IMG/VR virus record: IMGVR_UViG_3300049485_000129
Coordinates: 1-39,534 of that record
Reading direction: 5' to 3' (one strand)
DNA length: 39,534 nucleotides
Source: a virus
Lineage: Duplodnaviria > Caudoviricetes
In this document: piece by piece, positions 326 through 37,593 of the stretch
Numbering within the stretch: the stretch's first letter is position 1
Layout: each line of letters opens with the position of its first letter
Made by a program: the position numbers and the translations under genes
The notes under the pieces: generated by a model
The model's database searches: none
The model's input: only the letters and a program-made list of their open reading frames with translations
What the model was told of the DNA's origin: nothing

Positions 326-350
326 CAAATTTCAAACCGTTTGAAATTTG
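326..350. repeat. Dispersed 25-bp palindrome, copy 1 (extends to 323-353)
   Basis: CAAATTTCAAACCGTTTGAAATTTG. Confidence 0.95.
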
Positions 351-484
351 ACGCACATAACCATTACATAAGATTTATTCTGTCTAATGCTTATCTGTTA
401 ATGCTTACGGTTGTTTTGTTGGTTGGCGATCGCTTATTTTTGGTTAGTCAGTTACATAACCGTCACATAAGCATTGTTTTGCGT

Positions 485-772
485 CTAATGCTTGTTAAAT
501 GAATCTTCTAGTTGTCGCTTAATATTTGTTAAGGCGTCTTTTTTGGACGCTCTTATCCATTCTTCTTCCGAAAAGATACCTGATGGATCGCAAATCAATC
601 TTAATATTCTTAGTTCGTGCTGCGCATCTGGAGTATTTACCCCGTTAAACATTGCTTTGAATTTTCTAAAATTTAAGTATTAATTATGTGGGATTATTTT
701 TTCTTCTATTTGCTTAAGCGTCAATCTATTACTCTTAATGCTAAATTCAATCATCTCTTTTATTGTGGGCAT
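485..772 (-). pseudogene. Nonsense-disrupted paralog of the repressor C-terminal domain
   Basis: Translates MPTIKEMIEFSIKSNRLTLKQIEEKIIPHN*YLNFRKFKAMFNGVNTPDAQHELRILRLICDPSGIFSEEEWIRASKKDAL..., colinear with MKTIKEMIEE...HNKYI...DPEEEIFNEEQWLIASKRDSL of 1225-1884. In-frame TAA at 680-682. Confidence 0.8.
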
Positions 773-942
773 ATTTGTTTACCTTTGTTTTGATGTATGC
801 TTAGGTTTTATTTTATTTTATTACATTGCGTATCAAGTAATTAATTCATTTTTGGCTAATTAAATATTTTTTGTTGTTTTGTGTTAACTATTTGAGTGTT
901 TTGTGTAATACTAATAATAATGTATTTTTTGTTTTGTCAATT

Positions 943-1233
943 ATGAATAATATATCAATCGATTCGGATTTATCGCGCCAGCTATGCTTACTTTCAGAAC
1001 TGCAAGAGGTGTTACTGTGCAAGGTTTTTGCTCAGGGTAAAAATATTGTTTTGGATATTGATAATGACAATGCTTTTGATAGGTTATGTTTTCATAAACA
1101 TATTTTAGTTGCATCAGCTATTCTAATGGGCTTTGAAAAAGTAATTTTTTATATTCGCGGTGTTCGTTTTGGGACGGCAACCTGTCCTAAGCATCAAAAT
1201 GATTTGGCAATTAATAGCGTAATTTTACAATAA
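943..1233 (+). CDS. Hypothetical protein
   Basis: ORF 871-1233; ATG at 943 is the likelier start; converges on the repressor gene. Confidence 0.5.
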   Translation: MNNISIDSDLSRQLCLLSELQEVLLCKVFAQGKNIVLDIDNDNAFDRLCFHKHILVASAILMGFEKVIFYIRGVRFGTATCPKHQNDLAINSVILQ

Positions 1234-1884
1234 ATTATTTTTGCCTTGTCTGAGCAGAGAATCTCTTTTTGATGCGATTAGCCACTGCTCTTCATTAAAA
1301 ATTTCTTCTTCAGGGTCATATATTTCTCTAATTGCCATTAACTCCTGTGTGGTAGGAATATCTATACCATTTTTGATGGTATTTATTCTTCTTTCGGAAA
1401 TGTATTTATTGTGATTTTTGATGTATGATTTTATCCTGGACATACTTATTTTGTTCGTATTTTCGCATTCCTCAATCATCTCTTTTATTGTTTTCATTTC
1501 AGGAAATTTTGGTATTATTTTTTCACTGGCAATGCTTAGGACTTCTAAAATACTGTAGGGTTCTTTGTTGATGTCAATAATTAAGCCGGCTCCGGTGATA
1601 GCCGCAATGGTGTTGTATTGTGGATTCCCTACACTATTTTCTAAGTTGCTTAATGTTGTTTTGGATGGGGCAATGCCTGCCCCTAGTTTTTCATTGATTA
1701 ATTTTATTGCCTCTTCTTGTGATAATCCCTGGCACAACCGGGATTCTTTTACTAATTGCCCTAAGGTGTTTAACCCGTTTTTTGTCCACAATAAGCAATT
1801 TGATTGAGTGCTAAATCTCACTTGTTTTGTTTGGGTTGTGGGCTGTTTTTTGTGTTCAATTAGTGCATTTGTACTGATGACCAT
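1225..1884 (-). CDS. XRE-family HTH phage repressor (cI/Repc position), two-domain
   Basis: LGQLVKESRLCQGLSQEEA...SKTTLSNLEN...PQYNTI HTH signature; divergent from the transposase operon. Confidence 0.8.
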   Translation of the reverse strand: MVISTNALIEHKKQPTTQTKQVRFSTQSNCLLWTKNGLNTLGQLVKESRLCQGLSQEEAIKLINEKLGAGIAPSKTTLSNLENSVGNPQYNTIAAITGAGLIIDINKEPYSILEVLSIASEKIIPKFPEMKTIKEMIEECENTNKISMSRIKSYIKNHNKYISERRINTIKNGIDIPTTQELMAIREIYDPEEEIFNEEQWLIASKRDSLLRQGKNNLL

Positions 1885-2077
1885 AGTTGTTACTTTTAGG
1901 TTTTATATTTTGCTTTACTTTAGCATCTTAAATGAAAATTGTTTTTTCTTTTTCTCCCGTAACTCCCTGTATTCCTTATTCTATAACCTTTTTATCGATT
2001 GTAACGTTTTGTTAAGAGTGTTTGACATTCTGAACACTGAACGCTATTATATATATATTGATGTTACATAGTTACTT

Positions 2078-2242
2078 ATGAAAACGAAAGATAAAAAATT
2101 AGTTCGCATTGATCCACGCCTTTATTCATGTGTGGAAGATTTTGCGAAAGCAAAGCGGCTAGAAAAAACAATTGCTTTAGATTTGTTGGTATCTACTGCT
2201 TTGGGTATTTGTGGTATATATGAGAATGGCAAAAGGGGGTAA
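2078..2242 (+). CDS. 54-aa ribbon-helix-helix-like regulator (Ner/Cro position)
   Basis: MKTKDKKLVRIDPRLYSCVEDFAKAKRLEKTIALDLLVSTALGICGIYENGKRG; strand-helix-helix pattern; ends 2 nt before the transposase ATG. Not in the ORF track. Confidence 0.65.
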   Translation: MKTKDKKLVRIDPRLYSCVEDFAKAKRLEKTIALDLLVSTALGICGIYENGKRG

Positions 2243-2244
2243 TC

Positions 2245-4413
2245 ATGTGGTACTCCTTATCTCAATTAGTCGAGATTTCTGAGCAGTTGGCTACGTCTGG
2301 TCGATATCCAAAAGGATTACCGGGTATGCCGTCTAATATAATAGGTATTCGCCGGTTATCTGTGAAAGAAAACTGGCGATCGCAACCTCGTTCTGGGAGG
2401 GGCGGGGGAAAAGAATATTTTTCTGAGGATTTTCCAAAAGAAACTCAGGCAGTTTTAGCTAAATTAGATAGTAAAGAGGATGAAAGGATTGAGGAAGTTT
2501 CTTCTCAAGATCATTCTCAAGAAATAATTGCCCCTATTACTTTAAATGTAGGGTTTGAAGCTCCTGCACCTAATACACCTCAATCTCAATTGAGGTGTGA
2601 TACTAAATTGTCTTTACTATCTGCGTTTGATTTATTTCGTACGCGGGAAAATATGCGGTTGTCGGCGGCTCGTTGGGAGTTTGTACGCCGGTATAATTCT
2701 AATTTGATTAATCTTCCCTCTTGGATTCGTGCGGTTTTCCCGACTGTTTCTCAGATTAGTTTATGTCGATGGGAAAAATTCCGTCAAAAGCATAATTTTA
2801 AGGCTTTTGCTGGTAATTATGGACAGAAAAAGGGCTGCGCTATTGAAAAAAATATTGATATTAAAACTGCTATTTTAGGAGAATTATATAAAAATCCTGA
2901 TATTAAAATTTCATATATTTATACTTATTTAAAGTCAGCTTTTTCTGATGTTAATTTTAGTCTGCGATCGCTTCAAAGATGGACTAAAAATTGGAAGCAA
3001 GAAAATAAGGTTACATTTTTAATGAGGAAAGATAAGGATAAATATAAAGGTAAGTATAAAGGTGCTGTGGGTTCTGCATCGGAAGGAATTGTTAGATTTA
3101 ATCAGCGTTGGGAGCTAGATTCTACTCCTACTGATGTTGAAATTGCTATTTTAAATGAGTTTGGATTGGATTCTAAAAGGTTTACTGTTCTAGGCTTAAT
3201 TGATGTGTTTTCTCGCTCGCTTATCCTTCATGTTGCGGAGCGGGATAATTCTGATGCTGTGATTGCTCTGATTCGTAAAGGTATTACTTTGTGGGGTGTA
3301 CCAGAAGAAGTACGGACTGATAATGGCCGTAATTATATTAGTAATCGGGTGCGCCGTTGTGTCGAAAGTTTAAAGCCAGGTATGGGGATTCAGTGGATTT
3401 GTAATCCTGGCCAACCTCAAGAAAAGCCGTTTATCGAAGCGGCTATGAAAAAGGTTAATTATGGTTGTATGGAGTTTTTACCAGGTTATTTGGGGCATTC
3501 CGTAGCAGAAAGAAAACGTATTTCCGCGCGTAATAATGATGACGAGTTATTGAATTTAACTGAGTTTCAGCAGTTTTTAGATGCTTTTTGTAATGATTAT
3601 AACGAGATAAGATCCCATAGGGGGTTAACTGGGGAATTTAAGGGGATGACTCCTGGTGCTGTAAAGCGTTTGGGAGAGTTAAGAAACCCTGCCTATAAGA
3701 TTGAAAATGAACGAATTTTAGACCTTCTTTTGGCTGAGGTACCTTCCGGTAATGGTAAACGCCGGGTACGGAAAAAAGGTTTGGAAATTGATGGCGGTTG
3801 GTTCATTGATGAGCGTTGTGAACTTTTGAATCACATTGATGATGATGTGTGGTGCTACTGGGATCCTTTTGAGATGGATCTAGGAAAAGTTTATGTTTAT
3901 TCACGTTCTCTTGATGATCCGAATGCTGAATTTATCGGAATTGCTATTTGTCCTGAGCGAGTGGGCCGGTCTCGTGTCGATTTGATTGATGCTCAGAAAC
4001 AGATTGAGCGAAAACGCTCTGAGGCTTTAAAGGTTTTCAAAGGTGCTGCGAGAGTTTCTCGTAAGGATGTCGTCAAGGCCCTGGTTGATGGGTCTGATGA
4101 TGCTTTGGAAAAATTGGCTACTTTACCTGTGGCGAGTTTGACTCTTGATGACGAGTTGCCCGCTGTGAGTGATGCAGCTAATTGCATAGAGATTAGTAGT
4201 CCAGTTGTTAGTAGTAGTAATGATGAACCAAAAGAAGAGGGTCGGGTATTTCTCCATAATGAAAATTCTGTGCCTGGTCGTTACGAACGGCTGTGGTACA
4301 GAAAATTTGACGGCGAAGATTTGACTTTTGAAGATTTGGATTTTATGACTCGTTTTGAGTCTTCTGGATTCATGGGTCGTTCTTTGTCCCAGAGCTTGCA
4401 AAAAGCAGCTTAA
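2245..4413 (+). CDS. MuA-like DDE transposase
   Basis: N-terminal Mu-type HTH (GLPGMP...ENWRSQPRSGRGGGKEY); catalytic motifs WELDSTPTD, RTDNGRNY, KPFIE; C-terminal RRVRKKGLEIDG Mu-transposase C domain. Confidence 0.93.
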   Translation: MWYSLSQLVEISEQLATSGRYPKGLPGMPSNIIGIRRLSVKENWRSQPRSGRGGGKEYFSEDFPKETQAVLAKLDSKEDERIEEVSSQDHSQEIIAPITLNVGFEAPAPNTPQSQLRCDTKLSLLSAFDLFRTRENMRLSAARWEFVRRYNSNLINLPSWIRAVFPTVSQISLCRWEKFRQKHNFKAFAGNYGQKKGCAIEKNIDIKTAILGELYKNPDIKISYIYTYLKSAFSDVNFSLRSLQRWTKNWKQENKVTFLMRKDKDKYKGKYKGAVGSASEGIVRFNQRWELDSTPTDVEIAILNEFGLDSKRFTVLGLIDVFSRSLILHVAERDNSDAVIALIRKGITLWGVPEEVRTDNGRNYISNRVRRCVESLKPGMGIQWICNPGQPQEKPFIEAAMKKVNYGCMEFLPGYLGHSVAERKRISARNNDDELLNLTEFQQFLDAFCNDYNEIRSHRGLTGEFKGMTPGAVKRLGELRNPAYKIENERILDLLLAEVPSGNGKRRVRKKGLEIDGGWFIDERCELLNHIDDDVWCYWDPFEMDLGKVYVYSRSLDDPNAEFIGIAICPERVGRSRVDLIDAQKQIERKRSEALKVFKGAARVSRKDVVKALVDGSDDALEKLATLPVASLTLDDELPAVSDAANCIEISSPVVSSSNDEPKEEGRVFLHNENSVPGRYERLWYRKFDGEDLTFEDLDFMTRFESSGFMGRSLSQSLQKAA

Positions 4414-4474
4414 AAAAAGAATACGAGTAAAGAATACTCGTACACACAAAATTCATATAACAGGAGTCTAACTC

Positions 4475-5212
4475 ATGCGCGATGTAATTGTCAAGACGGA
4501 TAATCTCTCATATTTTGAACAGGTTGTGGATTTCTTATCTAAGAAATCTGGAGAACAGATGTGCTTAGTGTGGGGGTTGCCCGGCACTGGTAAAAGTTCC
4601 GCAGCTAAATATTTGGCTGTTACGGTTGGCGGTCAGTATGTCTCATGCCGGCCCGGTCTTTCGGGGATGGGCTTAATGCGCTTAATTCTCGCTAATTACG
4701 ATGCGAAATGCAATAGTTTTGCTGCGGGAATTGATAAGGTTATTAGCTTTTTAAAAGCCTCTAAACAACCGCTTTTTGTGGATGAAATTGATTTTATTGT
4801 GGAGAAATACGAGGTTTTGGAAGCCTTAAGGACTATCCATGATGAAGCGGGTGTGCCTGTAATTGTTTTGGGTATGCCAGGGATTCAAAATAAAGTGAAA
4901 GTGCATAAACAATTATGCGATCGCATTCACTTTATGGAGTTTGGGTCGGCTTCTTTTTCTGATGTAAAAAGATTTACTTTAGAAAGATGTGAGGTGTCGA
5001 TTGAGGATGATCACCTTAAAAGTATTTTCTCTTTTGCTAAAGGGAACTTAAGACTTGTAAAGCGTTGCCTGGAATACGCGGAGAACTTCTGCTCTTCTAT
5101 GGGATTAAAAGCACTTTCTTCTAAAGATTGGGGTGAAATGGCGTTATTACCTGAATATGCCATTGAACCCGCTCCAAAAATGGCTAAATCTTCAAAAAAA
5201 GGGGGTAAATAA
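4475..5212 (+). CDS. MuB-like AAA+ transposition ATPase
   Basis: Walker A GLPGTGKS, Walker B LFVDEID, LRTIHD, GNLR; directly after the transposase. Confidence 0.9.
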   Translation: MRDVIVKTDNLSYFEQVVDFLSKKSGEQMCLVWGLPGTGKSSAAKYLAVTVGGQYVSCRPGLSGMGLMRLILANYDAKCNSFAAGIDKVISFLKASKQPLFVDEIDFIVEKYEVLEALRTIHDEAGVPVIVLGMPGIQNKVKVHKQLCDRIHFMEFGSASFSDVKRFTLERCEVSIEDDHLKSIFSFAKGNLRLVKRCLEYAENFCSSMGLKALSSKDWGEMALLPEYAIEPAPKMAKSSKKGGK

Positions 5213-5216
5213 CACC

Positions 5217-5843
5217 ATGTATGCAATTTATCAAGATGGTTTAGAAAACGCACGTTTCAATAATCTAACTATTGATATGGCGGATCATTGGTTGAGGTGG
5301 TTATTAATGTATGAGCCAGGCTCTAATCCCCGCGTAGAGTTAGAAAACAAAAGTACGGATATTAAATGTGTAGGAGTTTTCGATTTTACCTATATGCTTG
5401 ATTGGGCAAGAGAGCAATGTTTAAAACGCGAGTTTTTGGAAGATAAACCCACTCGTAAATTTTCTCGGTGGTATGGGCAAGGACTTGAATCCATTAATAA
5501 TATTCCCGAAGTTCGAGAATATTCAAAAATTCCTGATTTTATTGAGGAATTAATAGAGTATTTTTGTCCACATGGGAACAGCATGAAGCTGACTTACTTT
5601 CCTATTGGGGTTGGGTATTCTGCTACTAACAACAATCTTGTTTTTGGAAAAAAATTCACGGCCATTCATTTAGTGGATGGTAGCTTGAATTGCTGGGGAG
5701 TTAAACACGATATAAAGTTTCTATTTGATGGGAAGTCTCAGTATTTTCAAGATGGTGGTGTCTATAAGTTTCATCAGGGCTTTCCTGATGGTATTACGGT
5801 TGCTCCTGCTAATCGGTACTTGATTACTTTAAGAAAGATTTAA
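5217..5843 (+). CDS. AlkB/2OG-Fe(II) dioxygenase-fold protein, metal ligands apparently lost
   Basis: R..RWYG, NSxxLTYFPxG, FG, DGGVYxF and C-terminal RYLITLRK match AlkB spacing, but the HxD and distal H ligands are absent. ATG 5217 follows a GGGGG RBS. Confidence 0.5.
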   Translation: MYAIYQDGLENARFNNLTIDMADHWLRWLLMYEPGSNPRVELENKSTDIKCVGVFDFTYMLDWAREQCLKREFLEDKPTRKFSRWYGQGLESINNIPEVREYSKIPDFIEELIEYFCPHGNSMKLTYFPIGVGYSATNNNLVFGKKFTAIHLVDGSLNCWGVKHDIKFLFDGKSQYFQDGGVYKFHQGFPDGITVAPANRYLITLRKI

Positions 5844-5915
5844 GTTTGTTAAATAGGTATTGGTAGTAATTATCAATACCTATTTGTAAAAATGTTGTAA
5901 AAAGAGGTGAGTACG

Positions 5916-6059
5916 ATGTCATCAAAATGCAAATCTTGTGGAGAACTAATTGAGTGGATCATTACTTTAAAAGGGAAAAAAAGCCCTATTAATGTTTCTG
6001 ATGGACTACCTCATTGGGGTAGCTGTCCAGATGCGAAAGTTTGGAAAAAAGGAGGGTAA
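5916..6059 (+). CDS. 47-aa phage zinc-finger protein
   Basis: MSSKCKSCGELIEWIITLKGKKSPINVSDGLPHWGSCPDAKVWKKGG (CxxC...HxxxC); GAGG RBS. Not in the ORF track. Confidence 0.7.
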   Translation: MSSKCKSCGELIEWIITLKGKKSPINVSDGLPHWGSCPDAKVWKKGG

Positions 6060-6061
6060 CA

Positions 6062-6823
6062 ATGTTAGCTGAATTTGTTGATACACAAATGGATTTGATT
6101 GAAGAAAACCAATATTTAGAGTTGAGAACTGATGTAATCCGTGCTTATCCCACATACGGAGTAGCTGATGAAAAATGCCCATACGCGATAATTCACAAAG
6201 CAACTAAAATGGTTATTTGTCGCTTTGTTGAATTAGATACGGCGCGTTATTTTATGTCATTGGTGTGGGATTCAATTATTTTTGGATTTCAATCTTTATC
6301 CGAATACAACGCTAAGATTACTCAAGATTTTTTAAGAAGTCTTCCAATGGCTAAAGATATCATTGTCGTTGGCGTAAATGATGCAAATAGTTGGCAGGAT
6401 AGACTAGGTTTTTTCGATGAAAAAGGCAGGTTCTTGAGGAATACTTTTGGCACTCCTATTAGTTTTGGATGGACAGCGGATAGATTATTAAAAGGTATGA
6501 AAACGGTTACTCGCCGTACCTGGAAAGCAAAATACGCTCAAATGTTTATCAATGCTTATCAACAAGGAAAATTGATACAAGCATTTGATAAGGATAGAAG
6601 ATATGGAGGTAAATTAATCGGTTATTTAAAGGTTTCTGATATTTATCAGGAGTCAATCTTTGATATGCCTGAATCTGATGTAAGTGCTGAAGGTTATCCT
6701 GAATTATCAAAAGAGGAATTTATAGGTAAGTTTTTCTCAGATATAGAAGGATCTGATAACCATGTAGTTTGGGTTATTCGATTTGAGTTTTTCTTGTTAA
6801 TTGGAGGTGATGAATGCGATTAG
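6062..6823 (+). CDS. ASCH/PUA-like domain protein
   Basis: C-terminal ISFGWT..LLKGMKTVTRRTWK...IGYLKVSDIYQE...DVSAEG...VWVIRF; GGAGG RBS before ATG 6062. Confidence 0.75.
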   Translation: MLAEFVDTQMDLIEENQYLELRTDVIRAYPTYGVADEKCPYAIIHKATKMVICRFVELDTARYFMSLVWDSIIFGFQSLSEYNAKITQDFLRSLPMAKDIIVVGVNDANSWQDRLGFFDEKGRFLRNTFGTPISFGWTADRLLKGMKTVTRRTWKAKYAQMFINAYQQGKLIQAFDKDRRYGGKLIGYLKVSDIYQESIFDMPESDVSAEGYPELSKEEFIGKFFSDIEGSDNHVVWVIRFEFFLLIGGDECD

Positions 6824-7011
6824 AGATGAAGGGGAATCGGCGGGAAGTAGAGGAGTTTTTCTCATATTTAATCAATATGGAAAAGATGAGCTTATCCCAA
6901 ATCGTGCTTATTGATCCGATTAAAAAGTTATCGCCTGGCGTTTATTCCCGCGCTGTAAGTGTAAAAATCGGTTCTGGAATTGCCGTAGCAACGGCATCTT
7001 TAAGGAAATAG
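6814..7011 (+). CDS. Hypothetical protein
   Basis: GGAGG RBS; overlaps the previous stop; same operon. Confidence 0.6.
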   Translation: MRLEMKGNRREVEEFFSYLINMEKMSLSQIVLIDPIKKLSPGVYSRAVSVKIGSGIAVATASLRK

Positions 7012-7061
7012 TTAGTTGGTTAAGTAGTTGGTTGCTTTTAACATTCTAAGAGGCAAAATTT

Positions 7062-7295
7062 ATGCAATTAGTAAAGATACAGAAAAACATGATAATTGAT
7101 GTTGACGCAATTATTTATGTAGAAAGAATAGGGGTAAATGATGGCGAGTATGGATTAAAAATCGCTTTTTCTAGTGGAATAGAAACAATCTTATTTCTAA
7201 GGAAAGAAACTGCGGTTAACGTATGGGAGCTTTTGGAAAGCCGCGCACTTTCTTATGATGAATATGCGGAAGAATATGGGATCGAGTTTTCTTAA
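7062..7295 (+). CDS. Hypothetical protein
   Basis: ORF with GAGG RBS in the early operon. Confidence 0.65.
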   Translation: MQLVKIQKNMIIDVDAIIYVERIGVNDGEYGLKIAFSSGIETILFLRKETAVNVWELLESRALSYDEYAEEYGIEFS

Positions 7296-7347
7296 ATAGT
7301 GGTGGTTGGTAGCTAATAGTTAGTTATTCTTTATTCAGGTAAAATTT

Positions 7348-8085
7348 GTGGAAAAAACAGAAAAATTAATGAATGCGCTAAGTAAAATAATCGATGCTTT
7401 ATCAAATTCGGATGAGACATCTTTAGGTTTTTCAGATTTCACGGGTGATCGGTGGATATATATCGGAGATGACGATTCTTCTGATACCCCCTGGTACTTT
7501 TTTATAAACAATGAAAAATTGTTCATAAGTCAATCTTGTTTAACAGGTTTTTTAACAGGGATTGAGGTAATGTCTAGGGAATTTAAAGGCAAAACAAACC
7601 GTAAGCTATTGGTGAAAATTAAGGCTGATCAGTCTTATGTAATCCAGGTCGGGCTAAAAACAGTTTTTGCAAAAGGATTATTACTCGGATTAGAGAAATT
7701 TACTCAGGAATACGATTTTAAATCTATTCCCGTATCAATTGTGGCAAAAAAAGGGGATTCGGAAAATGTTAATTTCTGCTCCATTTTTGTTAACGAACAA
7801 TTCATTAAAGTTTCTTATCCTTCTATAGATGATTGGGATCCCTCTGTTGCGGTCGATTCTATCACTAATAATTTAATTGGTGATCAGAGCAAAAAAAAAG
7901 AACTTTTGCGCAGAATTAAGGCTGCTCAGATAACACTTAATTGGGATAAAGACCAATTGAGAAATTACGCTTTTGATAAGTTTAAGCAGTCTAATTCGGA
8001 CAATTTATCTTTGAAAGAATTAGATGCTATGGCTTATCAATTGGAGATGATTAACAAAGTGCAGCAACAAGATAAGGAGATTTAA
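7348..8085 (+). CDS. Hypothetical phage protein
   Basis: 245-aa ORF in the early operon; start uncertain (GTG 7348 or ATG 7369). Confidence 0.7.
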   Translation: MEKTEKLMNALSKIIDALSNSDETSLGFSDFTGDRWIYIGDDDSSDTPWYFFINNEKLFISQSCLTGFLTGIEVMSREFKGKTNRKLLVKIKADQSYVIQVGLKTVFAKGLLLGLEKFTQEYDFKSIPVSIVAKKGDSENVNFCSIFVNEQFIKVSYPSIDDWDPSVAVDSITNNLIGDQSKKKELLRRIKAAQITLNWDKDQLRNYAFDKFKQSNSDNLSLKELDAMAYQLEMINKVQQQDKEI

Positions 8086-8087
8086 TT

Positions 8088-9137
8088 ATGGATAGATGGA
8101 CTGAGGAGGAATTGAATTTATTAAATTCTGATATGTCTATTTCTGACTTAGCGCAGGCATTACAAAGAAGTCAAAAGGCAGTTAGAAAAAAAATGGAGAG
8201 TTTGCAAATTGTAGGTGGGAAATTTCAAAAGTTAGATGACGGTGTTTCTCGGTGGAAACCATGGACTGAGGAAGAACTAGATTGCCTTAAGTCTTGCCTT
8301 AGTTCTATGACTGTAAATGAAATTGCGGCGCAGTTGAATCGTACACCTGGTGCTGTTCGTAAGCGTATTGCTGAATTGGGTGAGGGAATCGCTTATAACC
8401 CCATATTGTGGACTAAAGAAGGTGATGACTACATACGCGCTAATTATGGGAAATTACCTGTTTCTAAAATTGCGGTTACAGTCGGCCGTACGGAAATTGC
8501 TGTAAGAACTAGGGCGCGGTTTTTAAAAGTTCGGGTGAACCCTAATTACACTTATTGGACTCCTGAACAAGAAGAGACCTTAAAACTGGAATATAAACCA
8601 GATAAAAACTTAATTAAGGCTTTAGCTAAAAAGCTGGTGAAATCTGTTGCTTCTGTGAAACAAAAAGCTTTGAAATTCGGTCTTTGCCGTACTAGACAAA
8701 GTATGAGATATCGGAAATGGGAGCCGGAAGAAGTTGAGATTTTAGAGGAGTTATCAGGAGATATTCCGATGTTGTTATTGGTGAATAAATTAAACAAATT
8801 TGCTAAAAAACAAGGTCTTTCTCCCCGTACTTATAACTCTGTACGTTTAAAGGCATCGGAATTAAAACTACCGTATCTATGTTCTGGAGATGGCGACTAT
8901 TTCTCTATTTCCAATATTGCGGATGGATTAAGAATGAACCGCCATGTTGTTTCGGGTTGGTTAAAAAATAAGCAATTTGCTAAGATTTTACAGCCAATTC
9001 GTCAGAGTGATGATCCAGGTTGTGTCACTTATATTCCTCGCACAAATTTGAGGAAGTTTATTCAGCAATATCCGGGTGAAATTTCAGCAGTTAATCCCGA
9101 TATGTTGTGGTTCATTAGTTTGTTTGATAGTAAATAA
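8088..9137 (+). CDS. Myb/SANT-like repeat DNA-binding protein
   Basis: Five W(T/E)xE(E/G/Q) repeats, each followed by an IAxxLxRTxxAV-type helix. Confidence 0.7.
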   Translation: MDRWTEEELNLLNSDMSISDLAQALQRSQKAVRKKMESLQIVGGKFQKLDDGVSRWKPWTEEELDCLKSCLSSMTVNEIAAQLNRTPGAVRKRIAELGEGIAYNPILWTKEGDDYIRANYGKLPVSKIAVTVGRTEIAVRTRARFLKVRVNPNYTYWTPEQEETLKLEYKPDKNLIKALAKKLVKSVASVKQKALKFGLCRTRQSMRYRKWEPEEVEILEELSGDIPMLLLVNKLNKFAKKQGLSPRTYNSVRLKASELKLPYLCSGDGDYFSISNIADGLRMNRHVVSGWLKNKQFAKILQPIRQSDDPGCVTYIPRTNLRKFIQQYPGEISAVNPDMLWFISLFDSK

Positions 9138-9149
9138 TTTGAGGTTTGC

Positions 9150-10883
9150 ATGAATACTGACTCTATAGTTTTGATGACTGAAAATAATGAGATTGGGCAA
9201 ATTGATGAGCTTTTTGATTATCAATTATTAGACCAAGAGACGGCTACTTTTGTTCAAATTAAAACCGAGCAAATTAGGGAAAAGCATAGACTTGTTTTAA
9301 ATTCGATCATTGAAATCGGAGAAAAAATGATTGAGGTTAAAAACCGTTTGCCTCACGGGCAATTTGGAGCTTGGTTAAAAAATGAGCTTAAACTTTCTGG
9401 ACAAACTGCAAAGAATTATATGGATGCAGCTAAAAGCCATGAATGGGATGCTTTATCTCCCGAAAGTCAAGATAATATTGCTGTATCAGGACTGTATTAC
9501 TTGTCAAGTTCTAATATTTCCGCTGAGGTACGTCAAGAGGTTGTTGAACGTGCAAATAATGGTGAAAAAATCACTAAAAAGAAAGCTCAAGAAATAGCTA
9601 AAAAAGCTCAACATTCAACTATTGCCTACAAGGAAAAAGTTATCAACAATCAGTTACTTTCTGAGAATTTAACTCCTAGTAATGGCAATTTCAACAATGA
9701 GGATATAATCTATTCTGGAGAAGTTATGGAGTGGGTTTCTCCATCGGGGGAAACATTCACTTTAAAAGCTGGTGATAAGGTGACAAAATCGGGTGCGGTT
9801 CTTAATGATAAATCTAAAGTAATCGTTAAGTTACCTGATTTTCCTGCATCATCTGTTACGGTCGATTTAAGTGATTTGAATGCAGGTGCGCAATCATCAA
9901 GATTGCAATCACTAAAGCCACGGGAGTTTACTTTAAATCAGCCTGATAGCGACAAAAAATACGTTTTTTGTACTTTTTATGACAAGAATCATAAAAATCA
10001 GTATCGACTTGTTTTTAAGGGCAATATTTCGGACAATGGTACTCATACAGTGTATTTGGATGAATTGTCAGATCAACCAATAGAAGAATATGCAGAAAAT
10101 TTGCTAGGGAAAATTTACGCTGCTTATTTAGAAACTGTTGTTGAGGATGTTGAGGGCTGGAAAGTTGGGGACGCGGCTAAACTAATTGAGATTGATAATT
10201 CTCGGTATGAACAGTATGTTGGCCGTGTGGTGATGATCGACAAGGCTAAAGCAGATGGTTCTTTATGGGTTTATTTGACAGATTTACCAACTATAAGATT
10301 TTACGCACAACCATCTTATTTAATACCTGCATCTGAGTTTGATGAGTTTTTCCAGCTAAGTCCTGGTGAATTGGTTGTAGATAAAACTACTGAAAAACTT
10401 GGGGTTGTGTTGGCTAATATGGAAGGAACTGTTAAAATACGGTTTGCGAGCAGGATTATCAAAAATGATGATCCTGGTTTCTTTGAATTTGTTGCAAAGA
10501 GTGTTTTAAGTATGTCTGAAAATATTGACCAAATTGTTAATCTAGCCTGTGATGTATTCGATAACAAATATATCTTTTCTACAGGGGATTTTTCTGAAAA
10601 TCTTACTAATGAAAATCTTTTTGTTATCGGATTAAATTCCGAACAATGGGTTAATGATTTAATTGCTAAGATTGATAAGGGGCTTGTCAAAAATGCGATC
10701 GCGGTTGTTGACCTTCAACCTAATTCGATCTTTTGGCAAGAAGCCGTAAAAGCTGCGCATGGGGTATGTTTTTTACAAGGAGGACAAACATCGTTAACCG
10801 TGTTATTCTTTGGGCAATCAGAGATTTTTGTGAATTTTAAACGGGCTTTTAGTGTTGTCGGGGCTGTGTTAGAATTAGTTTAG
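9150..10883 (+). CDS. DUF3102-domain protein with a degenerate C-terminal adenine-MTase-like domain
   Basis: FDYQLLD...IIEIGEKMIEVKNRLPHGQFGAWL...TAKNYM (DUF3102). C-terminus NAIAVV...WQEAVKAAHGVCF...VLFFG...F...F...G resembles phage Dam C-termini without NPPY. Confidence 0.75.
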   Translation: MNTDSIVLMTENNEIGQIDELFDYQLLDQETATFVQIKTEQIREKHRLVLNSIIEIGEKMIEVKNRLPHGQFGAWLKNELKLSGQTAKNYMDAAKSHEWDALSPESQDNIAVSGLYYLSSSNISAEVRQEVVERANNGEKITKKKAQEIAKKAQHSTIAYKEKVINNQLLSENLTPSNGNFNNEDIIYSGEVMEWVSPSGETFTLKAGDKVTKSGAVLNDKSKVIVKLPDFPASSVTVDLSDLNAGAQSSRLQSLKPREFTLNQPDSDKKYVFCTFYDKNHKNQYRLVFKGNISDNGTHTVYLDELSDQPIEEYAENLLGKIYAAYLETVVEDVEGWKVGDAAKLIEIDNSRYEQYVGRVVMIDKAKADGSLWVYLTDLPTIRFYAQPSYLIPASEFDEFFQLSPGELVVDKTTEKLGVVLANMEGTVKIRFASRIIKNDDPGFFEFVAKSVLSMSENIDQIVNLACDVFDNKYIFSTGDFSENLTNENLFVIGLNSEQWVNDLIAKIDKGLVKNAIAVVDLQPNSIFWQEAVKAAHGVCFLQGGQTSLTVLFFGQSEIFVNFKRAFSVVGAVLELV

Positions 10884-10906
10884 TTAATGTATAGAGTATG
10901 TCGGTT

Positions 10907-10937
10907 AAAACCTAGTTTCTAAAAGCTAGGTTTTTTT
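10907..10937 (+). terminator. Intrinsic terminator of the early operon
   Basis: AAAACCTAGTTT-loop-AAAGCTAGGTTTTTTT. Confidence 0.7.
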
Positions 10938-11074
10938 CATTTAGTTATACGCGCGGGTATATTAAATGGTATTTTAAGGATAGACGTAATATTAGTGTTC
11001 CCGCCTTAATTGGTAGGACTTTACTTTTTTACGGTATAATATAGTAAGCAATTAATTCAATTATTTTTTAATAT

Positions 11075-11614
11075 ATGGCAAAACGTAGCATTATCGAAAC
11101 TATGGATCAAGAAATCCGGCGGCAATTGGATGAGAAGATCATTGCTAATGGATTTGGTAATTATGGGGAATTAAAGGATTGGCTGCATGAAAAGGGCTAT
11201 CACATTCAATCGACTTCAACTGTTCAAATTTATGGGAAAAAGTTGCAAACAAAAATTGAAGATGTAAAAAAAGCTATCGACTATGCTAAAGCTATTCAGG
11301 ATGTGGCCAGAGATGATGAGAATCTCTTGGCTGATTGCTTAAATAGCTTGGTTCAAGAGCGTTTATTTTCTGTTTTAGTTGAGTTGGGGGATGTTTCTTG
11401 TGAAGATGAGATTAATTTTAATGTTTTGATGAGATTAGCTAAAGTTATCCCCGCGCTTTCTGGTGCGTCTGTTCAGATTAAAAAACTTCAGATGGAAATA
11501 CGAAAACGCGCTACTTCTGTAAGTGAAGAGGTTGAAGGGATTGCTATTGAATCTGGTTTATCTGATAATGTTGTTAGCTTGATCAGGGATAAAATTCTTG
11601 GTATAGCTAATTAA
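11075..11614 (+). CDS. Mu gp27-like (DUF3486) putative terminase small subunit
   Basis: MAKRSII..RRQLDEKIIANGFGNYGELKDWL.EKGY.I.S...YG...GLSD...IRDKILGIA, typical of transposable phages. Confidence 0.8.
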   Translation: MAKRSIIETMDQEIRRQLDEKIIANGFGNYGELKDWLHEKGYHIQSTSTVQIYGKKLQTKIEDVKKAIDYAKAIQDVARDDENLLADCLNSLVQERLFSVLVELGDVSCEDEINFNVLMRLAKVIPALSGASVQIKKLQMEIRKRATSVSEEVEGIAIESGLSDNVVSLIRDKILGIAN

Positions 11615-11616
11615 TC

Positions 11617-11641
11617 CAAATTTCAAACCGTTTGAAATTTG
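11617..11641. repeat. Dispersed 25-bp palindrome, copy 2
   Basis: CAAATTTCAAACCGTTTGAAATTTG, 2 nt after a stop codon. Confidence 0.95.
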
Positions 11642-11664
11642 ACTAAAGAGATGAGAGGTTTGTT

Positions 11665-12027
11665 ATGATTTGCCCAAAATGTAATGGCAAAAATTTACAT
11701 CAATTAAAAGATGGTAGATTCTTGTGCAGGGATTGTGAAAATATTTTTGTGGCGGTGAAAGAGCCTGAGCAAAATGAACTTGAAGTTGAACCAATTAAGG
11801 TAATAATTGTCGATAATAAGGAGCAAATTACCTTAAGTAAGCTGTTTATAGTCTTTTGCTTGTGCTTCGGGATTTGGTGGCTTTTTTCTACGATGTATAA
11901 CGCTATTACGGCTGATCCTTTTGGTGGTAAAAGAAGAGTAGAGGAGGCTAGGCAACTTAATGAAGAAATGAAAAAAGTTAATCAATGTCGTACATCTCCT
12001 AATTACAGTGAATGTATGAGAAAATAA
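11665..12027 (+). CDS. Zinc-ribbon single-pass membrane protein
   Basis: CPKC...CRDC followed by hydrophobic LFIVFCLCFGIWWLF. Confidence 0.7.
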   Translation: MICPKCNGKNLHQLKDGRFLCRDCENIFVAVKEPEQNELEVEPIKVIIVDNKEQITLSKLFIVFCLCFGIWWLFSTMYNAITADPFGGKRRVEEARQLNEEMKKVNQCRTSPNYSECMRK

Positions 12028-12121
12028 ATAATTTTTAATAAAAAATCACTGGTTTTTGAATTGTTTAAAAACCAGTGATAGGTTAAGATTAAGTGAGTGT
12101 AACTTAATTTAATTTTAACAC

Positions 12122-13369
12122 ATGAATAGTCAAACAATTAAACCAATTATTGGAAGAGTGGGCGGAAAATGGAGAATCTCTAAATGGGTTATTGAACACA
12201 TTAAAAGATTTGAATGGTCGTTATATGTTGAGCCATTCTGTGGTAGTGCAGCAATCTATTTTCAATTACTTAATGAGGGTATTCCTGAATTAATTAAAAG
12301 TCGTGGACATCACCCGCGATTTGTTCTTAATGATATGGATTCTAAAATTATGAGTCTGTATCGTTGTTGCCGTGATTTTCCTGAGTTGTTAGCTTATGCT
12401 GTGTATTTTACTCCCTATAGTAGAGAGGAACATAGAGAAGCTCAAAAAGGTGAAGCCGTTGATGATTTGATTGAAATGTGCGATCGGTATTTAGTTGAGA
12501 ATAAGCAATCACAAAGCCATGAAGGTGGTTGGAGTTTTGATAAGTTTAAAGACGGTAATGATACTAAAGAAAATATTAATCAGTGGAATAAATCTCAAAG
12601 ATATTTAAGAGCGTCGCAACATTTAGGAAAGCAATTTAACGAGCTTAAACAAGGCATTGAATTGATACCTGACGCTAATATCAGAAAACAATCTCAACTA
12701 GCTTTAGATGCGATTTTAGCTGAGGTACAGAAAACTTTAGAAACTGATATTAGGGTAGAGTTTGTGAGAAAGTTTTTATGTGATGATTTACAATCGTTTA
12801 AAGCTGAAGCTGGCGGAACTTGGGGAATGGCAAAAGATAAAAATATTAACCCTGCTGGTGGATCACATTCATTAAATAAACCCGATTATTTTACTTATAG
12901 AACATTAAGAGATAATGACAATAATTCGAGGCTTTTAACAGCGTCATCTCACTTACAAGAAATATCAGAACTCAAAAAAGTCTATCTTGAAAATGATGAT
13001 TTTGAAAAGGTTTGCAGACGTTGGGCAACACCGCACACACTAACGTATTTAGATCCCCCATATTTTGGAAAAGAGGATTATTATTCAGAAAAGTTCACTA
13101 AAGAATGTCACTTGAGATTATGTCAGATGGCACACGAATTAGAAGGACAGGTAATTATTTCCTATTATCCACATCCTGAGATTATGGCAATGTATTCAGA
13201 GAGTGATTGGGAGTTTCATTACAAGGAAACTGTGGCAAGTAGCGTGGGTATTACTAGAAATTCTAAAACTAAAACTCGCCCAAAAAGAACAGAATTATTA
13301 CTTGTTAGAAAAAATAGGAATGTCGATAAAATCAGTGTTAACTTATCAGGACAAATGAGGTTATTTTAA
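12122..13369 (+). CDS. Dam-like (D12 class) DNA adenine methyltransferase
   Basis: GGKWR, YVEPFCGS, VLND, YLDPPY, TELLL motifs. Confidence 0.88.
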   Translation: MNSQTIKPIIGRVGGKWRISKWVIEHIKRFEWSLYVEPFCGSAAIYFQLLNEGIPELIKSRGHHPRFVLNDMDSKIMSLYRCCRDFPELLAYAVYFTPYSREEHREAQKGEAVDDLIEMCDRYLVENKQSQSHEGGWSFDKFKDGNDTKENINQWNKSQRYLRASQHLGKQFNELKQGIELIPDANIRKQSQLALDAILAEVQKTLETDIRVEFVRKFLCDDLQSFKAEAGGTWGMAKDKNINPAGGSHSLNKPDYFTYRTLRDNDNNSRLLTASSHLQEISELKKVYLENDDFEKVCRRWATPHTLTYLDPPYFGKEDYYSEKFTKECHLRLCQMAHELEGQVIISYYPHPEIMAMYSESDWEFHYKETVASSVGITRNSKTKTRPKRTELLLVRKNRNVDKISVNLSGQMRLF

Positions 13370-13372
13370 ATT

Positions 13373-19439: not shown

Positions 19440-19446
19440 TTAAAAG

Positions 19447-19471
19447 CAAATTTCAAACGGTTTGAAATTTG
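19447..19471. repeat. Dispersed 25-bp palindrome, copy 3 (extends to 19442-19476)
   Basis: AAAAG-CAAATTTCAAACGGTTTGAAATTTG-CTTTT. Confidence 0.95.
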
Positions 19472-19515
19472 CTTTTTGAGTGGAAATTATTTTTTATGCC
19501 ATTTTAAGGGGTGAT

Positions 19516-27215: not shown

Positions 27216-27443
27216 ATGAAAGTTCAAGTATTGGTAAATATTGAATTACCGGAGTTAGATAGTTGTAAAAAAAATAACGTAATTATCGATGCAAATAACT
27301 TAAGTGAAATTATCGCTGATTTCTATGCAGCAGATCAATTAGCTGAGATAATTCGGAATAAATTAATAGACGAAGATATTAGCGGTGATGGCGACACTGA
27401 GTATTATTTGCCAGAAAATGTGTACAAAGCAATACCTTATTAA
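27216..27443 (+). CDS. Small acidic protein, tandem paralog A
   Basis: AGGAG RBS; similar to the next ORF. Confidence 0.7.
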   Translation: MKVQVLVNIELPELDSCKKNNVIIDANNLSEIIADFYAADQLAEIIRNKLIDEDISGDGDTEYYLPENVYKAIPY

Positions 27444-27524
27444 AAGTTCGATCAAAAAATACTGAAAAAAGAAGATTTGTAGAAATAAGGTCAGTTTCTT
27501 GTAATTATTTAAAAAGAGGTAAGC

Positions 27525-27749
27525 ATGAAAGTTCAAATAGTAATGAATATTGAGTTAGAAGAGTTAGATAGCTGTGAGGAAGATGGAGTACCAGTTACTG
27601 CTGATGAATTAGCTGAAATCATATCCGATTTCTACACTGCTGATGAATTAGCGGAAATAATTAGAGAAAAGCTAATAGAGGAAGAAAATAGCGGTAATGG
27701 TGATACTGAGTATTTTTTACCCGATAGTGTTTATGTTGGACTAGCTTAA
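27525..27749 (+). CDS. Small acidic protein, tandem paralog B
   Basis: Shares ELDSC...EII.DFY.AD.LAEIIR.KLI.E..SG.GDTEY.LP with the previous ORF. Confidence 0.7.
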   Translation: MKVQIVMNIELEELDSCEEDGVPVTADELAEIISDFYTADELAEIIREKLIEEENSGNGDTEYFLPDSVYVGLA

Positions 27750-27761: not shown

Positions 27762-27786
27762 CAAATTTCAAACGGTTTGAAATATG
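27762..27786. repeat. Dispersed 25-bp palindrome, copy 4 (1 mismatch)
   Basis: CAAATTTCAAACGGTTTGAAATATG, abutting the GGAGG RBS of the next gene. Confidence 0.92.
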
Positions 27787-29450: not shown

Positions 29451-29526
29451 GGGGTCTTAGTTCAATGGGCAATTAGAACATCGCCCTGTCACGGCGAAGA
29501 TACGGGTTCAAGACCCGCAGACCCCG
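29451..29526 (+). tRNA. trnD: tRNA-Asp (GTC)
   Basis: Acceptor GGGGTCT/AGACCCC, D stem GTTC/GAAC, anticodon arm TCGCC-CTGTCAC-GGCGA, T loop TTCAAGA, discriminator G; no encoded CCA. Confidence 0.9.
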
Positions 29527-33305: not shown

Positions 33306-33638
33306 ATGTTTACCGAACAACAAAGATTTCAAATCTTATCTCATCTTGACAAAACAATAGATGATATTGCTGTTATTTGGGCTGCTTTAGATAGGGTTGA
33401 AAATACATCTCAATCTCTCATAGATAATGTTTTAAGTGCTGTTAATCAAATGGATGCTGTATTAGATAAAAGGCAATTATCAGGTACGGATGAAGCTGGA
33501 TTAACAAGAGTAGATGTGATTGAGTTTGACCCGTGCAAACAGATAACCCAAATAAACCGACAACGTTACGCATTAAAACGTAAGTTGGCTAAATTAATTG
33601 GTGTAGTAGTTGATTCAGAAGTAGAAGGTGTTTTTTAA
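33306..33638 (+). CDS. Putative head-tail adaptor
   Basis: L.RVDVIEF motif; position after the capsid gene. Confidence 0.5.
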   Translation: MFTEQQRFQILSHLDKTIDDIAVIWAALDRVENTSQSLIDNVLSAVNQMDAVLDKRQLSGTDEAGLTRVDVIEFDPCKQITQINRQRYALKRKLAKLIGVVVDSEVEGVF

Positions 33639-33660
33639 ATTTCAAACGGTTTGAAATTTG
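33636..33660. repeat. Dispersed 25-bp palindrome, copy 5 (1 mismatch)
   Basis: TAAATTTCAAACGGTTTGAAATTTG makes up essentially the whole intergenic space (stop 33638, ATG 33662). Confidence 0.92.
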
Positions 33661-36292: not shown

Positions 36293-36293
36293 A

Positions 36294-36851
36294 ATGACCG
36301 AATTAGCATTTTATATCAAACCAAAAAAATCTACTACATATACAGTGGGAGATGACGAATCAGGAACATTAACGCTAACAAAATTAGGATGTTTGACCGT
36401 CAAGGAAGAATTAGGGTTAAGAGATATAATGAAAAATATTGACCTTAATTCAACTCCATTTTTTGACTTTCAATTAGCGATCGCAACGCTTGCTATTCAA
36501 TTAAGAGGAAGTGAATCTTGGCAACAATCAGATACTGAAGGTTTAACTGTTCCATTAGTAGAAAAAACCTACGAGTTCTTTTTTGAAAAAGAGCGTAGCA
36601 GATGGGAAAATAAATCCTATTCTTTAAAATTTGAAGGGAAAAAAGCTAAGGAATTAGCTGTGAATTTTGCAGAAAAAGCAAATGATATTATCGCTATCAA
36701 TCCGAACGATCCTGAAGATTCTAAAATATATTATATTTACGATTCTGAGTCAGATGTTCCTGATGGTTATGAGTTGTTATCGGGAAAAAAATCCATAGAA
36801 TCCAGCACGGAAACAGTGAAACCGACTGGAATAAGCTCTACTGGAAATTAA
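36294..36851 (+). CDS. Tail assembly chaperone (gpG-like)
   Basis: After the tail tube; G.LTV.E motif; slippery G GGA AAA AAA near the 3' end. Confidence 0.75.
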   Translation: MTELAFYIKPKKSTTYTVGDDESGTLTLTKLGCLTVKEELGLRDIMKNIDLNSTPFFDFQLAIATLAIQLRGSESWQQSDTEGLTVPLVEKTYEFFFEKERSRWENKSYSLKFEGKKAKELAVNFAEKANDIIAINPNDPEDSKIYYIYDSESDVPDGYELLSGKKSIESSTETVKPTGISSTGN

Positions 36852-37204
36852 AACTTTTATACCCTAATGAGCAGCGATTTTCATCTGAAAATTTTGGGGA
36901 TTGTCCAGTAATTTTAATAGAACAAGCATTGGACGCGGCTAATTCCCGTGATTTAGAATTAGCTAATTATCTAGCAGTACCCTTAAGCTATGTTGGAGTG
37001 GGGTTAGTGTCTTCACAAGGCGTAAAGGATGTTAATCCCCAGTGGTTTAATCCTTACGGGAAAATGCTTGAAAATAAAAATGCTAAAGAGTTTATTTCCT
37101 CTGAATGCGCTAAAGTTTTTCACGAATTAAAAGAAGAGAATAAACTACCTGCTTGGTCATTTAATATATTTGATATTGAACTATTAGATAGTTTACGAAA
37201 CTAA
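36782..37204 (+). CDS. -1 frameshift extension of the tail chaperone (gpGT-like)
   Basis: The -1 frame from GGGAAAAAAA is open (KIHRIQHGNSETDWNKLYWKLK...EQALDAANSR...) to the stop at 37204. Confidence 0.8.
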   Translation, partial: GKKIHRIQHGNSETDWNKLYWKLKLLYPNEQRFSSENFGDCPVILIEQALDAANSRDLELANYLAVPLSYVGVGLVSSQGVKDVNPQWFNPYGKMLENKNAKEFISSECAKVFHELKEENKLPAWSFNIFDIELLDSLRN

Positions 37205-37243
37205 AATAAGAATTTCCTTATTTTAGTTTTTTCTTAAATTCTA

Positions 37244-37316
37244 AAACAGGGGAAGGATTTGAACCTCCGTCCTTTGGGTTATGGGCCCAACAAGCTGACC
37301 ACTGCTCTACCCTGCT
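37244..37316 (-). tRNA. trnM: tRNA-Met (CAT), initiator-like and atypical
   Basis: Acceptor AGCAGGG/CCCTGTT, anticodon arm TTGGG-CCCATAA-CCCAA, T arm GGAGG-TTCAAAT-CCTTC; TATAAT just upstream. Confidence 0.8.
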
Positions 37317-37373
37317 TCTTTTATTATAATTCAAAACGGTATTTTTTGTGCAATATTTAATTAGGAGCTTATT

Positions 37374-37559
37374 ATGCAAAACAATCTAGGAATCAAGATT
37401 TTATTACTATTTTCTGCATTGTGTTTATCTGGTTGGGTGCAATTAGCTGATAGCCTCTTTTTAAGCAACAAATCAGATAATTTAGCGCGTGTAGTGCATA
37501 ACGATAAAGATGCAAATCCTCCACCTCCTCCACCTCCCAAACAGAATAAGAAAAAATAA
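37374..37559 (+). CDS. Small secreted or membrane peptide with a polyproline tail
   Basis: AGGAG RBS, hydrophobic N-terminus, NPPPPPPPKQNKKK. Confidence 0.5.
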   Translation: MQNNLGIKILLLFSALCLSGWVQLADSLFLSNKSDNLARVVHNDKDANPPPPPPPKQNKKK

Positions 37560-37568
37560 GAGTGAAGG

Positions 37569-37593
37569 CAAATTTCAAACCGTTTGAAATTTG
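37569..37593. repeat. Dispersed 25-bp palindrome, copy 6
   Basis: CAAATTTCAAACCGTTTGAAATTTG between convergent genes. Confidence 0.95.

Follow-up and report, generated by a model that had tools for sequence, protein, structure and literature searches.

Six dispersed palindromes in a Mu-like phage are candidate binding sites of the phage's own DUF3102 protein

Six palindromes between the genes of a Mu-like phage

We analyzed a 39,534-nucleotide (nt) stretch of viral DNA (Duplodnaviria; Caudoviricetes; IMG/VR record IMGVR_UViG_3300049485_000129, positions 1 to 39,534), hereafter called the window, which is a whole, linear virus record estimated to be 72% complete. Its gene content includes a MuA-like transposase, a MuB-like ATPase, a Mu gp27-like small terminase, a large terminase, and head and tail genes, and 89% of the phage is coding in the set of 60 open reading frames (ORFs) used here. 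An earlier reading made from the letters alone (the sequence-only reading) had drawn attention to six copies of a 25-bp palindrome, each with at most one mismatch, and to a gene for a protein of the family DUF3102 as their possible partner. The palindromes are present as described: four copies are exact (326, 11617, 19447, and 37569) and two carry one mismatch (27762 and 33636), while none of 100 shuffled sequences contained any match at up to three mismatches. The sites are as follows.

323..353 (core 326-350, center C): site 1, arms lengthened to 15 bp; noncoding, 273 bp inside the left end
11617..11641: site 2, 2 nt past the stop of the Mu gp27-like small terminase gene; next ATG 23 nt on
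19442..19476 (core 19447-19471): site 3, between the convergent dnaB and DUF29 genes; 17-bp arms with A/T tails
27762..27786: site 4, one mismatch; 12 nt past a stop codon; the gene at 27795 has its ATG 8 nt further on
33636..33660: site 5, one mismatch; begins on the TAA of the upstream gene, 1 nt from the next ATG
37568..37594 (core 37569-37593): site 6, between convergent genes; abuts the stop of the minus-strand gene

The copies are intergenic, mostly just past stop codons, and roughly 4 to 11 kb apart, as had also been claimed. Five contain no coding base and the sixth overlaps a TAA in the 60-ORF set; only 8.7% of 25-mer placements are equally free of coding sequence, which gives 4e-7 for six. 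A stop codon precedes or overlaps five of the six sites. Successive sites are separated by 11291, 7830, 8315, 5874, and 3933 bp, a spacing more even than random intergenic placement (coefficient of variation, 0.33; P ~0.009; 20,000 draws). Sites 2, 4, and 5 stand in co-directional gene runs, 23, 8, and 1 nt ahead of an ATG, with site 4 abutting the ribosome-binding site of the gene at 27795; convergent genes flank sites 3 and 6, and site 1 is in the left-end region. The center base is C or G in all six copies. No decayed copies with two to five mismatches to the 23-bp core were detected in the window, and the single match at six mismatches compares with 1.3 expected.

As a set, the palindromes do not have the GC stem and following U-tract of intrinsic terminators: a terminator scan flagged one of the six copies, site 3. 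Sites 1, 3, and 6 fold at -13 to -16.5 kcal/mol, whereas the folds of sites 2, 4, and 5 are no more stable than those of shuffled sequences (z, -0.4 to -1.2). None of the promoter-like matches listed, including the best early one at 2022-2050, overlaps any site, and the match totals equal those of shuffles. Recombination between sites was also considered, using contigs of run X1 over window positions 1-20000, and no joint among those listed points to it. The two listed joints that end at a site (352 to 11856 and 19471 to 2081) look like the contig of a second phage misplaced on the repeat, and contigs drop rare forms.

A DUF3102 protein with a KorB/ParB-like domain

The product of the gene at 9150 matches the DUF3102 family (PF11300) at 46.9 bits against a Pfam cutoff of 24.4. 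Inspection of the gene confirmed that it holds no in-gene palindrome, which the sequence-only reading had also noted. The relevant parts of the gene are listed here.

9150..10883, plus strand: DUF3102 gene, 577 amino acids; coiled coil and helix-turn-helix, weak KOW/SH3-like middle, C-terminal Dam-like domain
9210..9629, plus strand: DUF3102 domain, residues 21-160; KorB/ParB-like fold; predicted homodimer via the N-terminal helix
9396..9422, plus strand: predicted recognition helix, S83-G-Q85-T-A-K-N89-Y-M91 (SGQTAKNY); Q85 and N89 are the site-tracking positions
9423..9479, plus strand: place where relatives carry an in-gene palindrome; diverged and nonpalindromic in this gene
10497..10880, plus strand: Dam (PF05869)-fold domain, residues 450-577, without the NPPY catalytic motif

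Residues 21-160 were modeled as an all-helical domain with a mean predicted local distance difference test score (pLDDT) of 93.9. Six of the best eight structural matches were KorB, ParB, SopB, and Spo0J (Z, 6.1-6.8) and the other two were Raf1; KorB occupied the top two rows (Z, 6.7-6.8; root mean square deviation, 2.9-3.5; 97 aligned residues). The DUF3102 profile, whose family numbers 5,975 representative proteins at an expect value (E) of 0.001 or better, gave no match to the sequences of solved structures. A homodimer through the long first helix was predicted with a score of 0.76, versus 0.00 for the best control; the mark set for this score was reached by 20 of 30 solved dimers and by 1 of 23 single chains, and the model runs agreed in at least 92% of contacts at a pLDDT of at least 85. 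Such a two-fold dimer would suit a two-fold, palindromic site. The CTPase domain of ParB had no Pfam match in the protein, in which only about 20 residues precede the long first helix, and no ParA was found among the 60 ORFs scanned of this 72%-complete record. What survives of the earlier ParB-like assignment is thus the DNA-binding fold and not ParABS partition, for which the CTPase domain is missing and the sites are not clustered.

At the other end of the protein, residues 450-577 adopt a Dam fold (template modeling score by query, 0.79-0.82; profile E, 4.5e-6). An NPPY-type motif is present in 52 of 52 Dam-fused relatives and absent from the window protein, whose Dam-like domain is likely inactive. 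A methylase family is found in 55 of the 120 relatives listed. The middle region shows a weak likeness to KOW/SH3 repeats, below the bar for naming.

Recognition helix and palindrome covary across the family

Many relatives carry a palindrome of the same outline inside the DUF3102 gene, just after the helix and in either of two frames; the sequence-only reading had been right that relatives carry an in-gene palindrome there. It had also held that the window's palindrome could not sit inside such a gene, a claim that proved wrong: a stop arises only in the frame that reads KFQTV*, the other frame is open (QISNGLKF/QISNRLKF), and relatives carry a near-identical site in the open frame as [Q/E]IPNGLEF. 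Viral contigs matching the outline alone numbered 94 loci besides the related record L001, described below. DUF3102 was found at 31 of the 43 loci with symmetric sites versus 0 of 51 with asymmetric ones; because a single site type makes up 25 of the 43 symmetric loci, we also counted by distinct site, which gave 8 of 16 versus 0 of 26. In one viral locus (L351), three QIPNGLEF-type sites lie within 600 bp (301, 478, and 874), two of them in frame inside one DUF3102 gene.

We compared helices and sites across 232 proteins, obtained from 242 by removing 9 without a parsable helix and the window's own. In-gene sites were deduced from the peptides; checked against 46 loci whose DNA is known, this procedure gave 393 of 394 unambiguous bases correctly. 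A near-perfect palindrome was present in 140 of the 232, and 122 distinct helix/site pairs remained after removal of duplicates. Helix positions were numbered from the conserved tryptophan; positions 9, 10, 13, and 14 we take to be the outward-facing positions 1, 2, 5, and 6 of the recognition helix if S8 is the cap. Over the 122 pairs, position 10 covaried with base 7 of the half-site at 1.01 bits above permutation and with base 8 at 1.02, and position 14 covaried with base 9 at 0.91 bits; the cross terms came to 0.07 and 0.23 bits. Asparagine at position 14 went with A or G and arginine with C or T in 20/20 and 16/16 cases when position 10 was R, in 8/8 and 7/7 when it was D, and in 5/5 and 5/5 when it was Q. 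The position-14 rule was therefore without exception in the three commonest position-10 classes (61/61), and since it holds across these classes, it looks like a combinatorial code rather than mere shared descent. With identical helices left out, the true site fell at a median of 3-4% of 56 site types. The covariation of recognition helix with site that the sequence-only reading had proposed to look for is thus present among the family's in-gene sites, and the window's site comes near the top for SGQTAKNY.

The window helix has Q10 and N14, for which the code predicts A or C at base 7, A at base 8, A at base 9, and T at base 5; the site has C, A, A, and T. Of the 56 site types, one outscored the window's site for this helix on bases 7-9 (with one further tie) and four did so on bases 5-9. 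Conversely, 2 of 137 helices fitted the window's site better on bases 7-9 and 6 of 137 on bases 5-9.

A search for near variants of the site by DNA pattern alone, without reference to protein, returned at least 126 loci. Six of the 126 listed carry DUF3102, with the match inside the gene each time, and the five of these with a whole helix all read S-D-Q-[T/S]-A-x-N, that is, Q10 and N14, against a background of 6/232. In four of the five, the near-variant site encodes [Q/E]IPNGLEF and stands one symmetric arm base apart from the window's site. The other 120 listed loci gave no DUF3102 match and are mostly AT-rich asymmetric matches or an unrelated repeat type; 39 of them are only ~600 bases long. 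DUF3102 was the only one of 33 window proteins that matched the five loci, some of which are short, and the window scaffold is not close to those five in a tree that is poorly resolved. Because the window's sites lie outside the gene, codon linkage cannot produce their match to the helix. Continued binding can explain the match, as can descent from a lost in-gene copy kept by selection. The window locus is therefore an unlinked case that fits the code: with the in-gene copy lost, adjacency cannot account for the match.

The site is conserved in one related phage

The exact 23-bp core with a C or G center had no match in a collection of 185,579 genomes, one per species, that does not include the phage's own host. 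None of five outline matches in 401 genomes of the order around genome G004 was the window's site, the exact site had no match in a metagenome scan, and with a C or G center it occurred in no other viral contig. When the center base was freed, L001 was the only other viral record with the site. It carries two copies at the orthologous places of sites 2 and 3, inside blocks 74-75% identical to the window. All 24 of 24 arm bases are the same at both orthologous sites, whereas the center base is T in both L001 copies (577 and 7166) and C or G in the window (11629 and 19459). This combination of invariant core arms and changed center suggests a protein site. At site 3, the outer extension has changed in sequence in L001 but has kept its pairing, which suggests that this site doubles as a terminator. 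That the center is uniform within each phage and different between them hints at homogenization within the genome or at a center preference.

A second phage of the L001 type, with the same palindrome, is present in run X1 at a depth of ~8-16, compared with 36-52 for the window phage (window 1-20000). A contig of depth 15.6 has 1007 letters of other sequence across window positions 9127-10179.

Neither the DUF3102 domain nor the capsid protein, each used singly to scan viral contigs, turned up a relative, and the terminase relatives besides L001 were distant (49-67%) and uninformative. The capsid protein had a match in 1 of 401 cyanobacterial genomes (G400), where the 57 kb around the match contained neither a repeated palindrome family nor a DUF3102 match. 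Nine genome regions around lower-scoring DUF3102 matches or G400 held no site set of the window's outline.

DUF3102 as a candidate marker of the phage genome

Taken together, the sequence comparisons and structural models lead us to propose that the six palindromes are binding sites of the phage's own DUF3102 protein, a dimer that would mark the genome; we put the probability of this reading at roughly 0.7. Binding at the sites we consider quite probable in itself. Given binding, that the purpose is a self-marking tether has somewhat less than even odds. In the proposed mechanism, the DUF3102 dimer would read each half-site with a KorB/ParB-type helix, with Q85 predicted to read half-site bases 7-8 (CA) and N89 base 9 (A). 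Bound dimers would mark the phage genome at roughly even intervals and, once docked, would deliver their C-terminal cargo to phage DNA of their own kind instead of the DNA of the host or a rival phage. A methylase, the commonest cargo in the family, would gain from being tethered to its own genome. Because the catalytic motif has been lost, the window's cargo would instead be a structural or protein-recruiting scaffold. We favor a tether over other purposes because the sites are even, symmetric, and off the promoter-like matches listed, because there is no CTPase domain for sliding, and because methylase cargo is common. Sites 3 and 6, with convergent genes on either side, may also serve as terminator hairpins.

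Several results weigh against this proposal. Z scores of 6 to 7 are middling for a helical domain, and Foldseek returned no match at E 0.001 or better, its top row being ParB at E 1.2. Base 6 of the site is T where the model predicts C (0.86). Training used in-gene sites only ~30 nt away from the helix codons, and helix and site travel together as one cassette, as seen in nearly identical scaffolds that bear different helix-plus-site combinations. The same data also served to choose the helix-to-base map. A test restricted to independent pairs had two to three pairs and was not significant, with a poorly resolved tree in which 5 of 125 branches were starred. The five near-variant genes may likewise share a cassette and so not be independent. 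The DUF3102 helix of the L001-type phage did not emerge: homologue searches gave only the window protein, and nothing among shorter proteins. The Cro-like protein at 20000-20623 has a helix that is kept in L001. Only 2 of 15 DUF3102 phage records contained extra copies of the in-gene site, which makes dispersal the minority state.

The remaining evidence of this kind concerns sites that do not fit the local protein. A provirus (G005) that shares portal, head-morphogenesis, protease, and capsid genes with the window (36-46%) carries three dispersed copies of a different site with the same outline (G005:C1:10314, 21060, and 46298), and neither of its two DUF3102 proteins predicts this site, since 6-25 of 56 types score higher. 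Clusters of two to four different DUF3102-type palindromes, ~25-125 bp apart, occur in five records, as follows.

G718:C1:24161-24291: mixed-site cluster
G719:C1:20947-21127: mixed-site cluster
G721:C1:23457-23537: mixed-site cluster
G723:C1:10018-10097: mixed-site cluster
G426:C1:7039-7094: mixed-site cluster

The last of these records is complete and has no DUF3102 over the Pfam cutoff, with one weak profile match (E 0.016). In G718 and G723, one member of the cluster appears to fit the local helix. The misfit in G005 and the mixed clusters indicate that sites can be foreign and need not belong to the local protein; the clusters are possible decoy or passport arrays.

Other explanations were weighed against the same observations. 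If DUF3102 binds, its job could be gene control, with dimers blocking or tuning transcription at gene junctions in the manner of KorB operators or stoperators. Three sites 1-23 nt before start codons in co-directional runs and two between convergent genes would suit such a role, as would the weak KOW-like middle region, though it falls below the naming bar. KorB, the top structural match, is a long-range silencer (PMC11790492), and stoperators too occupy short intergenic gaps (PMC9283540). The sites, however, overlap none of the promoter-like matches listed, the protein has no CTPase domain for sliding, and intergenic placement may merely reflect the intolerance of genes for insertion; we regard gene control as rather unlikely. 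A different reader of the sites, whether the Cro-like protein, the repressor, the D5-like repeat protein, or the DUF3102 of another element for which the sites serve as decoy or passport, would account for the Cro-like helix conserved in L001, for the G005 site that fits neither DUF3102 of its own provirus, and for mixed arrays such as that of G426. It is nevertheless improbable, given that the site has the outline of the family's in-gene palindromes, that, of 137 helices, the window's own ranks in the top 3-7 for this site, that loci with near-identical sites share only DUF3102 with the window, and that neither the Cro-like nor the repressor gene has a site at its start.

Three further explanations were weighed. 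The palindromes might be RNA hairpins, either terminators or processing sites, copied round the genome with no protein reader: a stop codon stands before five of six, sites 1, 3, and 6 fold well, and the extension of site 3 still pairs in L001. Yet the terminator scan passes one of six, sites 2, 4, and 5 fold as shuffles do, only 1 nt separates the end of site 5 from an ATG, the core arms keep their very sequence between phages and not just their pairing, and the match to the helix code is left unexplained. Hairpins alone thus seem quite improbable, and the view of the sequence-only reading that a dimer-binding site fits better than a terminator is favored by the one flagged copy in six and the invariant arms. 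Spread of a host repeat or tiny mobile element into the phage, hinted at by a center base that is C or G in 6/6 window copies versus T in 2/2 L001 copies, as though copied within each genome, is very improbable indeed. The repeat was found in none of the 185,579 species genomes, the 401 genomes of the G004 order, or the metagenome scan, no decayed copies exist, and positions are conserved in L001; a host repeat, which the sequence-only reading had named as a finding that would refute its proposal, is disfavored in the sets scanned, with the phage's own host outside them. A plasmid-type centromere, or an aid to pairing of the ends like the strong gyrase site of Mu, would draw on the ParB-like fold, on the position of site 1 at 273 bp from the left end, and on an even spacing that suits compaction. 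Against this stand the missing ParB CTPase domain and the lack of a ParA in the 60 ORFs of the 72%-complete record; moreover, Mu has just one such site, in the middle of its genome, and the enzyme that uses it is host gyrase (PMC10052514). The analogy to that site drawn by the sequence-only reading is not supported, and we see little chance for this explanation.

Binding of the palindromes by the phage's own DUF3102 could be part of something larger. Our tentative and still doubtful suggestion is that DUF3102 and its sites form a fast-diversifying lock-and-key identity system of phages, with cassette swapping, a code of two to four residues, self-tagging that confines the action of each dimer and its cargo to the phage's own genome, and rivals that hoard foreign sites as decoys or passports; the window phage would then represent a derived state in which the key has moved out of the gene and been laid along the genome. 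The locus gives DUF3102 a precise test, since the 25-bp site and two residues can be named and swaps of specificity predicted. If binding is true, the family amounts to a natural collection of small DNA readers that work as dimers and obey a simple code, and the question arises why phages tag their own genomes and hoard the tags of others.

The phage element and its likely host

Beyond the sites and their candidate reader, the window contains the following features.

53..225, plus strand: left end of the transposable phage, with three TGATCAAGTT-type repeats at 81, 204, and 216; putative role
2245..5212, plus strand: MuA-like transposase and MuB-like ATPase, the context of a Mu-like element
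29451-29526: tRNA-Asp, within the structural region
37243-37317: tRNA-Met (CAT), within the structural region

A contig of run X1 matches window positions 53-3372 and has different DNA upstream of 53, and window positions 1-52 bear a weak likeness to a fragment of a nuclease gene of the PD-(D/E)XK type, apparently from the host (E 0.053). The different DNA before 53 in the contig and this nuclease-like stretch together place the left end at 53. The phage likely transposes, and the TGATCAAGTT-type repeats are likely transposase sites. Octamers of the form GCGATCGC occur 25 times in the window against 0.11 expected; this octamer is presumably HIP1, which we associate with cyanobacteria. The excess of GCGATCGC and the cyanobacterial origin of the best matches of the window proteins indicate a cyanobacterial host.

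A complete dnaB helicase gene (18120-19439, plus strand) lies within a mostly minus-strand block and is present in L001 as well (76% identity); it is an odd possession for a phage replicating by transposition. A D12-class adenine methylase of 415 amino acids is encoded at 12122-13369, of which L001 (887-1208) has only short pieces, beside an extra HNH-like gene. Just before site 4, two tandem acidic paralogues of 74-75 amino acids (27216-27749) share 70% DNA identity, and a third related gene lies on the minus strand at 17828-18061. An Rfam scan of the window found the two tRNAs only. At the right edge stands a PAPS-reductase-like gene (phrog_424; 38500-39336), and the record ends before any identified tape-measure gene. 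A second hairpin family, with two T-tailed copies at 10905-10936 and 17081-17112, has the look of ordinary terminators, and a hairpin with 27-bp arms lies between convergent genes at 15708-15767.

Comparison with known systems

A literature search that mostly did not extend to subscription journals found no study of DUF3102 (PF11300) function, and none of the papers naming DUF3102 dealt with phage DNA sites, judging by title or the opening of the abstract. The window system is not a member of the KorB-OB, ParABS, or stoperator systems, although it resembles each of them in part. KorB of plasmid RK2, a member of the ParB family, is a CTP-dependent sliding clamp with a partner, KorA, and a 16-bp operator, OB (PMC11790492). 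DUF3102 shares with it the DNA-binding fold and the arrangement of one mobile-element protein with specific sites near and far from genes. DUF3102, in contrast, has no CTPase domain, is predicted to dimerize through an N-terminal coiled coil, and has a 23-25-bp site that differs between phages; a methylase is often its fusion partner.

In ParB-parS and Noc-NBS, two helix-turn-helix domains likewise sit on a palindrome, and few residues switch specificity (PMC7383237); the domains of Spo0J, SopB, and ParB are among the top structural matches of DUF3102. DUF3102 differs in lacking the CTPase domain and a detected ParA, in having dispersed rather than clustered sites, and in its at least 56 site types in a small sample versus two main ones. 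In cluster A mycobacteriophages, the stoperator is an asymmetric 13-mer that follows the direction of transcription and is recognized by the immunity repressor as a monomer (PMC9283540). As with the window's palindromes, a single kind of phage-protein site recurs many times in short gaps between genes; the window's sites, however, are symmetric 25-mers matched to a protein that is not a repressor. The strong gyrase site of Mu, a single, central site used by host gyrase (PMC10052514), is similarly a cis element in a Mu-type genome that could aid genome organization, but the window has six copies, matched to a phage protein. Finally, prophage fusions of a ParB-CTPase fold to a DNA methyltransferase have been described (PMC12704722), in a report whose main text does not mention DUF3102 or palindromes. 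Both arrangements unite a ParB-related module with a methylase in prophages; in DUF3102, the fused part is instead the one that resembles the DNA-binding domain.

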